A DNA stretch of 63,810 bases, filler included, from Collodictyon triciliatum (Eukaryota): NCBI GenBank assembly GCA_043381765.1. It is 6 parts of 6 records of this genome, joined end to end, with 100 filler letters (N's around TTAATTAATTAA, not from the genome) between each part and the next. Parts side by side here need not be neighbours in the genome. Positions count along the whole stretch, not along the records: positions 24,249 to 36,264 come from JBHJMP010002256.1; 5 more parts are not named here. One strand, given 5' to 3'. Positions 25,103 to 29,002 of the stretch are shown here, piece by piece; the first letter of the stretch is position 1; each line of letters starts with the position of its first letter. The translations under genes were made by a program, and so were the position numbers. The notes under the pieces were generated by a model, which was not told the origin of the DNA, did no database searches, and saw only the letters and a list, made by a program, of their open reading frames with translations.

Positions 25103-28066
25103 TTATTGGGGGTTGGAAGGGAAGACAGAGACCGACTTTTGCGAAAGACTTGTGGCATAGAAAGTGCCGTCGAGTCCGAAGCAGGCACCCAAACAGCCGT
25201 CCAAGAGGATGCGGTGCTGAACTGCGCCCTGGTAGTTGTAGAAAGCGATTGTCCCGGTCTTGTTTTCACAAACCCCAAAGACACCAGGAGAGGCGCGGAA
25301 AATATGCGACCAGGCTTCGACGCTTGTTGGCACTTCCAGCCTGACTTCATCTTCCAAAATTCCGTCCTTTGAGAAGATGCGGACTCTGTCAGAGCCGGCA
25401 CAAAGAACTAAGAGTTCGTCCACTTCATTAACACAGACGCTATTGACAAGAGAGCTAATGGAACCCCCACTTTCGCTTGCATCTCCAATGACAGAGACAA
25501 ATGCGCCCTTCTTGTTCAACTTCTGGACTCTCTGATTTCCAGAGTCGGCCACATAGAGATTTCCTGTACTGTCAAAAGCAACCGAGTATGGGCGGTTGAA
25601 CTGGCCGTTTTCCTTACCCTTCTTTCCGCCGATGGTCTTGACAAGTGTGAGCTGGTCGGTGAAGAGCTTCACAGAGTGGCCTTCACAGTCTGCAACCGCA
25701 ATGAGCCCGTCGTTGGAGATAGCGATTCCTCTTGGCCCGTGAAGCTCCTTTGGGATAATGAGTCCGGTGTGGTGGGAGGAAATGTAGCAAAGGTCATCGC
25801 TCAAGATGTGGACTTTTTGTAGGTCTTCATCAGTCACATAGATGTCACCGTTCTGTGGATGCACACAAACCGCCCACGGACACTCGATCCAAGCATTAGC
25901 TGTCGAAGAGTCAATCATGGCGTTGGGGGCTTTGATGCTTGAAGGTGAGGTGGTAATCGAGTAAAGCAGTTCTGTTTCTCCATTGGCCTCTTCTTCTTCT
26001 TCTTCTTCTTCCACTTCTGTCAGTTCTATTTCTCCTTCTGTTTCTTCTACTTCTGTTTCTTCTACTTCTGTTTCTTCTACTTCTGTTTCTTCTACTTCTG
26101 TTTCTTCTACTTCTGTTTCTTCTTCTGTTTCTTCTTCTGTTTCTTCTTCTGTTTCTTCTTCTGTTTCTTCTTCTGTTTCTTCTTCTTCTTCGTCATCAGT
26201 GCTCAGGCCAAACATGAATGTCTCGTTCAACTTCTTGAGGTCGTCCAGGATGGTTTGCGGCAGTCTTGAGACAAAGGTAAGTGGGACAATTTCAATTGGT
26301 GAGTTATGTTTGGAATAAAGAACTTGGTTGGCGAAGCGCAGTGCGTTGTCCATCTGAGCCAGTAAGCGCTCGCCTTCGGGCTTTTCAATCAGCGTGCGCA
26401 GGGTTCTCTTGGCAACGTGGATTCGGCGCACTTCGTTCATGAGGCTACTCTGCGAGTACCTCAGTGGCTCAAGGATAGACTCATTCAACGCATCGAGCTA
26501 GATAGTTTTAATGTATTAATTTTCTTCTGGAATGTGCATAATATTTATTTTTTTTTTTAATAAAGATGCATGATATAGCAAATGGTTGTGGGCACCTCCT
26601 TCTTCGACTCAGCCTTGAACTGGTTCACTTGTGCTTCAAGTTCTTTGACAAATGCATCGAGCTCATCACTCCTCTCCTGGTGATGCTCGGCTTCCTGGGT
26701 TAGTAAGATTGTTATGGTGGTGTCTATATTGGCTTACTTCAATATTATTGAGATGCTATTATATTGAAATGAAATAAACGAAGTCTCCAACCTTCCTCAT
26801 CTTCAGCTGGATGAATGCAATATCCAAAGCAAGCTTGCTCTCTGACTTCTGGAGCTCTTGGATTTTTGTGACTAGGATGGAGTTGGATTCGAATCCCTGT
26901 TGAGAAAGCTCCACATACCGGTGTACATGTTTTCGGTCGTCCAGGGCACATTTGGCACATTTCAAAGGAGACTCCGGGCAGGACGGGCAGAAGTATTCGA
27001 CCGGAAAGTTTTTGTGAGTAGAGCAGTTTTCCGTTCTCTTTGGACTCGATACGGTTCCGAACTCGATTTTACTGAACGAAAGTGAATGTGAGGGTGTGTT
27101 TGTATTCTAGTTATAATTCTAATTTGAATGAGCCAATACATCAGAATTACAACGAAGAAAAATGAGAGTTACTTCATGATATGGTCTTCGTCATTCACTT
27201 CAACGTGCATTTCACTATGCTTTTCGCAATATACACTTTTTCCTCCACAGACAGTGCAGTAGTGGATAGCGTCGTTTTGACAGTTTCTTCCTTTGCACAT
27301 AATCACCACAACGCTTGTTGTAGCCTTCTCAGCCTCGAGACCAGCGTTCATACCTCCCATAGAGGCCGCATCATAGTCGAACAAATTTAACTCACCAACC
27401 GTGCTCCCATCCACATAGGCTGGCTCGGCACACAGTGGGCATCGAAGCGGCGGCTCTTCGTTTGAGTCAATTATGAGTGCCGATATACAGCTGGAGCAGA
27501 AAGTGTGTTGGCATGGCAGGAGACTCGGGTTGTTGTAATGGCTGACACAGACGCCACAGAGGCATCCGCTGAGACAGGCATTGATTACGGCTTCAGAGAC
27601 ATTCGCCTCTGGCTCGCTCTGGAATTTAGCCAGTTAGTATTTGCTATTCTATTCTTGAAAAGTGGGATTCAGATTGAAAATATAGATGAATACAGGTATG
27701 TCTAGGATGTTTGTTTGAGGTTCTTCATCTTCGTCTTGGTGGGCTGGCGTTGCGTTTTTGGCCAATTTGTGTCTTCTCTTTTGTTGGTCTAAAAAGGGAG
27801 GGGTAAGACAACCAAAAAAAAAAATGGCCATTCCAAAACAGCGAGCAATATTTCACCTTTTGGAGATGCGTTCCCGCAACATCCTGGGTTGAGCTCATTG
27901 GCATGGGTCTTTTCGATGAAGAAATCGCCATCTGTACTGCTGACCTTGAATGCACTGTTACGAAGGGTTCAGTAAGTGTTTTTTTTTTCTTTCATGTATA
28001 GTATTATTGATTACATAGTGTGAATGAATCGTGAATTTATGCTTACTCTCCTGTGATGGGCGACAT
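25103..28066 (-). CDS. TRIM-NHL-like protein: RING, B-box1, B-box2, coiled coil, acidic tract, NHL repeats (5' end uncertain)
   Basis: Phase-consistent exons: 27618-27173 (RING CGVC...PCQHTFCSSC...CPLC; B-box CKGRNC...CTVC...CEKH...H), 27071-26792 (CSTH...CPSC...CAKC...HVH), 26694-26596, and 26497-25103 (NHL: GPRGIAIS...VADCEGHSVKLF, GQFNRPYSVAFDSTGNLYVADSGNQRVQK). Three short upstream exons splice in phase back to about 28066-28119. Confidence 0.88.
25990..26192 (-). repeat. Coding acidic repeats (ETEE)n and (ETEVE)n within the TRIM-NHL protein
   Basis: 12-bp and 15-bp tandem units ttctgtttcttc and ttctgtttcttctac on the + strand, in frame in ORF 25103-26488. Confidence 0.9.
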
Positions 28067-28297
28067 CAAGGCGAAAACCTCTCCCTCCGCAATCGGTTTG
28101 TAATATGTCTTTGTTTTGTCTATTTAGTTATCATTAGTACAAATATATGGTATTGCTTCACTTTCGAAGGTGGTTTTATGATTAAACCTGGGTGAATTGT
28201 CTTTTTGGCCCGTACGAACTGGGTCTATGATTCATTTTTGTGAGATTTTTGAAGGCTGTCATTCATGATGCTGTCTTGGTTATTTGGGCTATCAGTG

Positions 28298-29002
28298 CTA
28301 CCTCTCTCTCTCAAGTAGCAGTTTTTGTTTGGCTTCCTCTGCTTTACGAGCTTCTTCTGCTTTACGAGCTTCTTCTGCTTTACGAGCTTCTTCTGCTTTA
28401 CGAGCTTCTTCTGCTTTATGAGCTTCAGCTGGAGTATCGACCTAGGGTTTTATGAGTTGTGACCTATGATATGTATGTTGAGGATTATGGGGGCGGATGT
28501 GTGCTTACGGTGTCGTAGAGCTGCAGAGCGCGGATGAATTTATAGTCTCTATGAGCTGAGTAATTCCAGCACGGAAGATTTGAAATGCCACGCGGTGCTC
28601 TCTTAATGGTCACTTTTTGTTCTCCGTTGAAGTCCAGCCAGAGAGTCTTCAAAATTGTGAGCGCTGTGATTTGTGCTGGAAGCTCCTCAATCTGCGTGTA
28701 TTGTTGTCAATTTTTTTTCAACATGAGTAAAAATAAGATTATAAATGAATAAAACAAACCGGGTTTCTGCATACATCAAGTAATTCGAGACGAGTCAAAC
28801 TCGATATTTGTGGTGGCAGCGATGATAGCTTGTTGGAACGAAGGTACAGTACTTTCAGACTGGTCAACAGGAAAACTCCAAGCGGCACAGAACCCAGGTT
28901 ATAGGAGCTGAGATCCAGATACGTAAAGCTTTTTAAATGGGCGATTTTACTATGACCAGTAATTTTTCGAAGCTTTTCTAAAAGCGCATTCTGGTCAGCC
29001 AT
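28298..29002 (-). CDS. LRR cassette (exons 29002-28760, 28691-28509, 28441-~28302) ending in (KAEEAR)n; either a short gene or the 5' part of the TRIM-NHL gene
   Basis: LKVLYLRSNKLSSLPPQISSLTRLELLDV, IEELPAQITALTILKTLWL, then VDTPAEAHKAEEARKAEEAR...LLLERER. A TAG at 28298-28300 overlaps a possible GT donor at 28301. Confidence 0.8.

Follow-up and report, generated by a model that had tools for sequence, protein, structure and literature searches.

A family of candidate variable-sensor LRR-TRIM-NHL genes in the flagellate Collodictyon triciliatum

The best reading of a locus in the freshwater flagellate Collodictyon triciliatum (29002-25100, minus strand, of the window, i.e., the whole 63,810-nucleotide stretch of DNA analysed) is that it belongs to a family of LRR-TRIM-NHL genes specific to this lineage, each copy being a single gene for a protein of ~950–1140 aa; these proteins would act as variable-sensor E3 ligases in a protist receptor system. 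We assign this reading a probability of about 0.6. The underlying architecture, i.e., LRR, coil, linker, RING, B-box1, B-box2, coiled coil, and NHL encoded by single genes, is very probably correct, and the copy in the window is a broken member of the family.

Gene model and a frame break in the window copy

The gene model comprises 11 exons, with the ATG starting at 29002 and the final codon at 25103, and encodes LRRs with a cap, a coil, a linker domain, a RING, a B-box1-like finger, B-box2, a coiled coil, and a six-blade NHL propeller, in this order. Pfam hits are found in sequence along the minus strand (LRR_8, E 6.4e-9, above cut-off; zf-C3HC4, E 1e-8; NHL, E 9e-21, in 3 stretches), bearing out the LRR, RING, NHL order on one strand described in an earlier note on this locus. 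Exon 1 (28760-29002) carries the ATG and LRRs and ends at a phase-0 donor positioned as in the paralogs, exon 2 (28509-28691) encodes the last LRR and a cap motif, a module common to LRR-kinase and Roco genes, and exon 3 (28302-28441) consists of an AEEARK-type coil repeat, a spacer of variable length. The linker domain, conserved across the family ahead of the RING, spans exons 4–6: a 37-nt micro-exon (28188-28224; AG/GT flanks at 37 nt in 21/21 paralogs), exon 5 (28047-28119), which holds the middle of the domain and is spliced to exon 6 in RNA, and exon 6 (27857-27954), which ends the domain with a Cys-Cys-Gly motif. Exon 7 (27694-27788) adds a basic helix and spacer.

The path across 28302-28120, which the earlier note had considered ambiguous between a 42-nt intron and passage through a TAG, is resolved as intron 3 (77 nt), the 37-nt micro-exon that the earlier reader had overlooked, and intron 4 (68 nt). 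A paralog RNA contig has the micro-exon spliced onto exon 5, and neither the 42-nt intron nor the TAG read-through is used by the paralogs. Tuned spliced alignment of the window selects a 46-nt intron through the TAG. An alternative genetic code is unnecessary; the coil frame has a TGA after the TAG.

Exon 3 has a length that is a multiple of 3 (66–591 nt) and contains no stop in 13/13 paralogs. It is 140 nt long in this copy, with 2 extra bases in the GA run before the donor (28302-28312), and this +2 slip ends the frame after residue 218. The premature TGA reached in the shifted frame shares bases with the first in-frame ATG past the break (TGATG, 28064-28068). This arrangement is seen in this copy only; in its close paralogs the codons at this place are Gln or Leu. 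The description of the protein as complete in the earlier note thus applies to the TRIM-NHL half, in which exons 4–11 form a single open frame of 841 codons, and to the family, but not to the LRR-to-NHL frame of this copy. An assembly slip as the source of the 2 bases is disfavoured by a 258-nt DNA contig from a separate run, X1 (which may be the source sample), covering the insertion with 0 differences and 0 gaps.

The insertion at the end of exon 3 is recent, and this copy is probably non-functional as a fusion; its output would most likely be only a 218-aa LRR-coil peptide, with the function carried by intact paralogs. Alternatively, the copy could be split and not dead, if ribosomes restarted at the ATG overlapping the TGA, or if splicing from a cryptic donor within the coil repeat bypassed the break, either of which would yield an 812-aa RING-B-box-coil-NHL protein. 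The overlap of the shifted frame's first stop with that ATG, a coincidence found in 0 of 18 paralogs, is consistent with such a split, as are a downstream half with no lesion and a dN/dS similar to that of paralogs, and spliced RNA specific to this copy (records identical to it, versus 90% and 79% for the best paralogs compared). However, normal dN/dS and RNA would equally be shown by a very recent pseudogene, and a chance origin of TGATG is plausible because a Leu codon needs only a single substitution to give both the stop and the ATG. The context of this ATG is also weak (T at -3), restarting there would halve the linker domain, and cryptic donors are likewise present in intact paralogs, e.g., L025, where their use with the micro-exon would break the frame. 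We therefore regard a split copy as improbable and retain the broken-fusion reading.

The TRIM-NHL half and the single-gene architecture

The RING (C3HC4, 27430-27558, in exon 8, 27618-27173) is detected by Pfam above cut-off in 19/19 members, its ligands are invariant in all 19 sequences, and its closest solved relatives are TRIM2, TRIM3, and TRIM56. In 9/9 young copies the last Cys is followed by Ala, where TRIM2 has Arg, a difference that may lower ligase activity. Exon 8 also encodes a B-box1-like zinc finger (27181-27297) with eight invariant Cys/His and B-box-like spacing in 19/19 sequences; the RING profile continues into the TRIM2/3 B-box, Pfam did not report zf-B_box for this exon, and ANCHR-like_BBOX was weak in 3/19. 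B-box2 (26921-27025, in exon 9, 27071-26792) together with the coil gives a profile matching TRIM28 (E 2.6e-6) and, weakly, TRIM2 and MID2. Pfam zf-B_box was found here in 15/18 members (best E 0.0012), with the window member, in which the last His is displaced, below cut-off. The coiled coil (26320-26900; end of exon 9, exon 10 at 26694-26596, and start of exon 11) follows the B-boxes, in the R-B-CC order; it is supported by the TRIM28 alignment too, and helices 2–37, 46–60, and 81–96 appear in a model of a paralog exon 11.

After an acidic repeat of low complexity, which is expanded in this copy (25980-26203, alignment A1), the remainder of exon 11 (26497-25100) encodes the C-terminal six-blade NHL propeller up to the stop codon (25100-25960), with 24 strands in the model. 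Its best folds are Thin/TRIM32 and TRIM71, and its best sequence matches TRIM71 and TRIM2. The propeller has 22 Lys/Arg versus 31 Asp/Glu, with three invariant Arg in alignment A1; a basic Arg/Lys pocket atop the propeller is described for the RNA binders LIN-41/TRIM71 in the available part of PMC5908797. For the linker, exon 6 matched no Pfam family, and a comparison with SH3 gave the expected register at a probability of 0.9% (P 0.063 against five SH3 sequences from the same genome), with no member significant.

At the family level, the LRR-RBCC-NHL fusion suggested in the earlier note holds up. Paralogs (counted without seven weak RING loci, L049-L052 and L055-L057) keep the intron positions and phases, their NHL exons are 61–91% identical, and 8/9 full-length ones give a lesion-free model over the whole span between LRR and NHL, with neither a stop nor a frameshift; L053 carries an N gap, and in L044 the linker is degenerate. 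Of the 25 family copies with at least 1.6 kb of upstream sequence, 21 are preceded by an LRR cap, and a genome search with exon 6 yielded 23 matches among 24 candidates. RNA contigs of low depth (2–12) from a single metatranscriptome join exons 4-5-6, 6-7-8 (in a paralog), and 10-11 (a junction identical to this copy), and so tie the linker part to the RING; for RNA record 9, the comparison runs up to the micro-exon, beyond which lie 39 more letters. In the sequence compared, no transcript connected the LRR or coil exons (2 and 3) to the micro-exon, and none ran from LRR to RING.

This last observation would also be expected if LRR-coil and TRIM-NHL were adjacent but separate genes, or if the assembly had wrongly fused them across the coil repeat, at which many contigs stop and which is 92–95% alike between TRIM and kinase genes. 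Several features make this very unlikely for the family: the stop-free, multiple-of-3 exon 3 in 13/13 paralogs, an intron 3 of only 61–108 nt across paralogs, and the lack of an in-frame Met past the micro-exon start in 11/18 modelled junctions. Divergent paralogs with unique spacers also retain the order, and the short unique spacers of L033 and L037 speak against mis-joining via the coil repeat. Of the alternatives raised in the earlier note, a decaying fusion describes the window copy, and two separate genes are a poor match to the family.

A shared and variable LRR head

The exon 2 cap module occurs in at least 150 places (150/150 scored matches among 455 genome candidates). In a sample of 40 loci with the cap, the head is followed by a kinase in 13, by Roc in 6, and by the TRIM linker in 3; the other 18 showed no output domain. 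Neither this common use of the LRR head nor the multi-copy family had been spotted by the earlier reader. The head of one TRIM gene (L023) is 88–92% identical over ~1.1 kb to those of kinase genes L091/L081, and 72–75% identical to those of TRIM paralogs. A single clade of kinase-linked heads was rejected (p-AU 7e-5), in a tree of 252 bases that is poorly resolved (9/47 branches starred); the TRIM-side tree meant to date the LRR gain has long branches and lacks resolution. Head exchange between TRIM and kinase genes is therefore likely: heads would have been swapped with LRR-kinase genes by recombination, the crossovers probably falling in the coil repeat, and one specificity could in this way be coupled to any of three outputs, kinase, Roco, or ligase.

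Variation is unevenly distributed along the protein. The linker (exon 6, ~0.2), RING-B1, B2-coil, and NHL display dN/dS of 0.19–0.27, versus 0.47 for the LRR. At ten LRR surface codons, pN reaches 0.48 against 0.09–0.13 elsewhere, a value attained by 0/5000 random sets; pS is high there as well (0.51–0.57), so that pN/pS is ~0.9 and not above 1. The head variation is concentrated on strand-face positions, with the frame and neighbouring introns 94–100% alike.

The surface hypervariability and the head common to kinases and Rocos lend indirect support to the sensor-E3 idea, and an immune-sensor role for the family has, in our judgment, slightly less than an even chance. Under such a scheme, the variable LRR head would bind a cytosolic ligand, either foreign or a sign of damage, and coiled-coil dimers and B-boxes would cluster the proteins on it. 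Clustering would activate the RINGs, as it does in TRIM5 and TRIM21, and ubiquitin would go onto the target or onto a conserved host partner gripped by the NHL propeller, which evolves slowly; degradation or autophagy would follow. These could also be true fusions engaged in ordinary signalling or protein quality control, with LRR variation reflecting drift and gene conversion among repeats; a pN/pS near 1 at surface codons would fit, and exposed LRR positions vary in many protein families. Given the concentration of variation on the strand face beside such similar frame and introns, and a high copy number, pseudogenes, and insertions that point to birth and death, we consider ordinary signalling rather unlikely and the sensor role the better candidate.

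Relatives, origin, and significance

A lineage marker (mitochondrial IF2), located on a window contig other than the gene's, shares 73% identity with Diphylleia rotans, and no more than 45% with any of the other 119 matches listed. The host, whose marker is thus nearest Diphylleia rotans among the matches listed, is not an animal, in contrast to a 2012 survey, which lists TRIM subfamily C (NHL type) as animal-only in its available text (PMC3503706); malin-type RING+NHL proteins were likewise not found in protists (PMC3160408). A family derived from an animal contaminant, which would leave TRIM-NHL within animals, could draw on the separate contigs of marker and gene and on animal TRIMs being the closest named look-alikes. 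This origin is most unlikely, as the head module is present in at least 150 places and common to the genome's own kinase and Roco genes, and the animal matches are distant (19–30% in structure alignments).

No relatives of the family outside this genome were found in protein, NHL-profile, and metagenome searches. The RING exon searched against longer proteins gave relatives in 0/151 candidates, and of the 80 distant RING loci that turned up in a metagenome scan, none matched an LRR or the linker. With the NHL-exon profile, the 120 matches listed were all multi-NHL proteins, largely from prokaryotes, and included no LRR or RING family, and long repeat proteins took up the best 150 matches of the NHL-exon search; these searches were thus swamped and do not show an absence of relatives. 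In the ESM Atlas, animal TRIM-like clusters were found at 0.90–0.93. Our search of the largely open-access literature brought up neither an LRR-RBCC-NHL protein nor a TRIM-NHL from a protist.

Animal TRIM-NHL proteins (Marin subfamily C: TRIM2, TRIM3, TRIM32/Thin, TRIM56, TRIM71/LIN-41) share the RING-B-box-coiled coil-NHL order. The tripartite motif is 'always' N-terminal according to one survey (PMC2533329), whereas here the RING starts at ~residue 310, with ~310 residues of LRR, cap, coil, and linker ahead of it. The present family further differs by an acidic spacer, by the absence of a filamin domain from the Pfam search and the model, by a non-animal host, and by the rapid turnover of its tens of copies. 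LRSAM1 (LRR-coiled coil-SAM-RING) similarly combines a cytosolic LRR sensor and a RING ligase in one chain, with the LRR directing the ligase to bacteria. Its RING is however C-terminal, without B-box or NHL, and no hypervariable family is described in the available text of PMC8567218; here, the RING is central and Pfam found no SAM in the exons. TRIM37-like subfamily A (DdTRIM) is the TRIM type known from non-animals, but has a MATH domain, one B-box, and no NHL or LRR, as far as the consulted parts of PMC3503706 and PMC5758549 describe it. A parallel in dynamics is offered by Ectocarpus LRR-ROCO/LRR-kinase candidate receptors, with birth and death, diversifying LRRs, and GTPase/kinase outputs. 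There, in the sections of PMC3341825 consulted, single-repeat exons are shuffled inside LRR arrays, whereas in the present genome the unit that appears to be exchanged between output classes, TRIM-NHL ligase included, is an entire 5' head together with its introns.

Both ends of the TRIM-NHL part best-match subfamily C, as would be expected from common descent, although the solved-structure library is animal-heavy. We tentatively propose a modular intracellular receptor system outside animals, in which hypervariable LRR heads would be swapped among kinase, Roco, and TRIM-NHL outputs, and whose core would be homologous to animal TRIM2/TRIM32/TRIM71; the ligase class would then predate animals, and its original task may have been cell-autonomous defence. 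The studied copy, as a broken member, matters chiefly as a pointer to its family. That a deep-branching flagellate has an expanded TRIM-NHL family with LRR heads is relevant to the time at which ligases of this class arose and to their first role, and, if true, the exchange of one variable head between kinase and ligase outputs would represent a protist parallel to the receptor modularity of plants and animals.

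The window copy and its reading frame

Pfam matches to LRR_8 (E 6e-9), RING (E 1e-8), and NHL (E 9e-21) follow one another in this order on the minus strand (29002-25100), the single-strand arrangement also described in the earlier note. We modeled this copy with 11 exons and 10 GT-AG introns of 67–101 nt: the LRR head (exon 1, 29002-28760; exon 2, the cap exon, 28691-28509), a coil repeat (exon 3, 28441-28302, 140 nt), a conserved linker (exon 4, a 37-nt micro-exon, 28224-28188; exon 5, 28119-28047; exon 6, 27954-27857), exon 7 (27788-27694), RING and a B-box1-like finger (exon 8, 27618-27173), exon 9 (27071-26792), exon 10 (26694-26596), and NHL (exon 11, 26497-25100). 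A tandem 9-nt repeat lies immediately upstream of the start codon (29060-29155). The splice path across 28302-28120, previously considered ambiguous, is settled by the micro-exon, which has AG and GT flanks in 21/21 paralogs checked, and by intron positions and phases common to the paralogs in spliced alignments.

The protein had also been described as complete, which holds for exons 4–11, open down to the final stop, but not for the LRR-to-NHL frame: with the modeled splicing, the end of exon 3 introduces a shift, and a stop follows residue 218. Paralog exon 3 ranges from 66 to 591 nt and is stop-free and a multiple of 3 in 13/13 paralogs (related copies, hence not 13 independent trials), while the window exon carries two additional bases in a GA run directly before the donor. 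This slip is present in DNA, since a 258-nt freshwater metagenome contig covers the site with zero differences, although that run could be the source sample itself, and contigs mask rare alleles. The dN/dS of the window copy is no different from that of its paralogs, which dates the frameshift as recent. The stop of the shifted frame overlaps the first in-frame ATG (28068-28064), with 812 codons remaining downstream, an overlap seen in 0/18 paralogs; rescue by restart or cryptic splicing nevertheless seems unlikely.

RNA evidence came from a single metatranscriptome (contig depths 2–12), with observed joins covering exons 4–8 and 10–11. Paralog contigs splice exons 4-5-6 and 6-7-8, the former being of L021/L023 type (two TRIM paralogs) and reaching 39 letters past the micro-exon. 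Two contigs are identical to the window copy, one splicing exons 10-11 and one mapping within exon 9; in these regions, the closest among the fetched paralogs reach 90% and 79% likeness. Of the RNA link proposed from LRR exon 2 to the RING, the observed joins cover the part from exon 4 onward.

The window is a series of separate contigs, divided by paired N runs at 12023-12122, 24149-24248, 36265-36364, 48375-48474, and 60542-60641; the one run that was read encloses a linker with stops in all frames. Other window features include a GNAT acetyltransferase on the same contig as the TRIM gene (33682-34854, −), an AMP-binding enzyme (14872-15954, +), reverse-transcriptase fragments (16902-18329, +), a BTB protein (62656-63717, +), and a 1368-codon open frame (44056-48159, +) that matched no Pfam family at E 0.001.

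A family of LRR-TRIM-NHL paralogs

The RING exon had 67 matches among 106 candidates in the genome (75 Mb, 14,576 contigs). Using 38 stretches fetched around these matches together with 7 short loci, we aligned a total of 44 loci to the window gene model with a purpose-written spliced aligner; 7 weak RING loci were excluded from paralog counts. The cap exon was present in 21/25 copies that have ≥1.6 kb of upstream sequence (L043 and L054 by eye, the other 19 via spliced alignment or tblastn); of the remaining four, L038 has other sequence, and L029, L032, and L058 carry insertions that by eye resemble retroelements. Eight of nine LRR-to-NHL contigs model without stop or frameshift (952–1138 aa), although some of the introns modeled in divergent copies are doubtful, the L044 linker is degenerate, and L053 contains an N gap; in the ninth, L033, exon 11 is frameshifted. 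The suspected LRR fusion is supported at the family level. L032, L045, and L058 are pseudogenes with multiple lesions. Mean pairwise dN/dS among young copies was 0.19–0.27 for linker, RING-B1, B2-coil, and NHL (the last from 3 sequences), and 0.47 for the LRR part. L028 lacks intron 2, cap and coil forming a single exon, and in L054 (G000 C2249) a kinase-like frame is followed by LRR exons whose phase-0 introns are spaced by ~23 codons, then by the cap and a divergent TRIM-NHL.

All eight RING ligands and the eight Cys/His of the B-box1-like finger are invariant in 19/19 sequences, and the exon 9 profile resembles TRIM28 B-box2 plus coil (E 2.6e-6). The best solved relatives by sequence are TRIM2, TRIM3, and TRIM56 for the RING and TRIM71 and TRIM2 for NHL. 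The structure predicted for the last exon of one paralog (pLDDT 75) contains a 24-strand propeller, for which Thin and TRIM71 are the best folds, as well as long helices and a disordered spacer. The family domain analysis found no filamin domain. The linker, matched at 23 places in the genome, has no Pfam match, and its likeness to SH3 is confined to the register (P 0.063). NHL charge is net acidic (22 basic vs 31 acidic residues), which, on overall counts rather than one-to-one residues, would not favor LIN-41-type RNA binding (PMC5908797). NHL expansion is very large genome-wide: of 317 candidates, the 136 scored gave 144 matches, and many of these sit in single open frames of 370–470 aa.

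A shared and variable LRR head

A genome search with exon 2 gave 455 candidates, and 150/150 of those scored match. Behind 40 loci, sampled non-randomly by score and downstream sequence, we found 13 protein kinases, 6 Roc domains (5 with COR), and 3 TRIM linkers; 18/40 had nothing recognizable downstream among the 101/214 open frames scanned for domains. In TRIM genes L023, L030, and L084, intron 2 shares 98% identity with the intron 2 of kinase genes, but 79% with that of the window copy. Likewise, L023 has a stretch of ~1.1 kb, beginning upstream of exon 1 and reaching into the coil repeat, that shares 88–92% identity with L091 and L081, both kinase genes, vs 72–75% with TRIM paralogs. Mis-assembly through the coil repeat could possibly produce such head likeness between near-identical copies, but the pattern recurs on six separate contigs. 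In a 50-row head tree, output labels switch 16 times with weak support; once the Roco rows had been removed, along with two partial rows and two long branches, a single clade of kinase-linked heads was rejected (p-AU 7e-5).

Ten strand-face LRR codons displayed a pN of 0.48 vs 0.09–0.13 elsewhere (0/5000 random sets as high) and a pS of 0.51–0.57 vs a background of 0.19–0.30. Head variation is thus strongly localized, short of formal proof of positive selection.

An LRR-kinase gene in the window (679-2805, +) contains a distant cap exon copy (37% identity at 1344-1502) and, by sequence, appears to be a further member of the head-sharing system. Roco genes L099, L102, L105, L107, and L111 carry the LRR-plus-cap cassette in two or three tandem copies, L099 with an additional one after the kinase, and reverse-transcriptase frames (Pfam RVT_1) directly follow the cap exons of L087 and L103.

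Host context and a putative sensor-ligase

The next contig of the window carries a mitochondrial IF2 that shares 73% identity with a transcript of Diphylleia rotans and ≤45% with the other 119 matches listed. Diphylleia belongs to CRuMs, outside animals, fungi, and amoebozoans. Older TRIM surveys that sampled few protists state that the tripartite motif is always N-terminal (PMC2533329), that only MATH-type TRIMs occur outside animals (PMC3503706), that Dictyostelium has one TRIM37-like gene (PMC5758549), and that malin-type RING+NHL proteins were not found in protists (PMC3160408). The literature searched contained no LRR-RBCC-NHL protein, and protein searches, swamped by NHL-repeat proteins, returned no relatives outside this genome. 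From its domains, the family is predicted to work like TRIM-NHL ligases, but differs in that the RING is not N-terminal and the host is not an animal.

Beyond the architecture, splice path, frameshift, and shared and variable head established here, we infer a mechanism in which the LRR head would bind a ligand in the cytosol, the coil and B-boxes would cluster the proteins, and clustering would activate the RING, which may place ubiquitin on the target or on a partner bound to the conserved NHL. The Ala that follows the last RING Cys in young copies would count against this putative ligase mechanism. By analogy, the variable-head family may be likened to brown-algal LRR-ROCO families (PMC3341825). 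The sensor-ligase model would similarly parallel LRSAM1, in which the LRR brings a RING to bacteria (PMC8567218).
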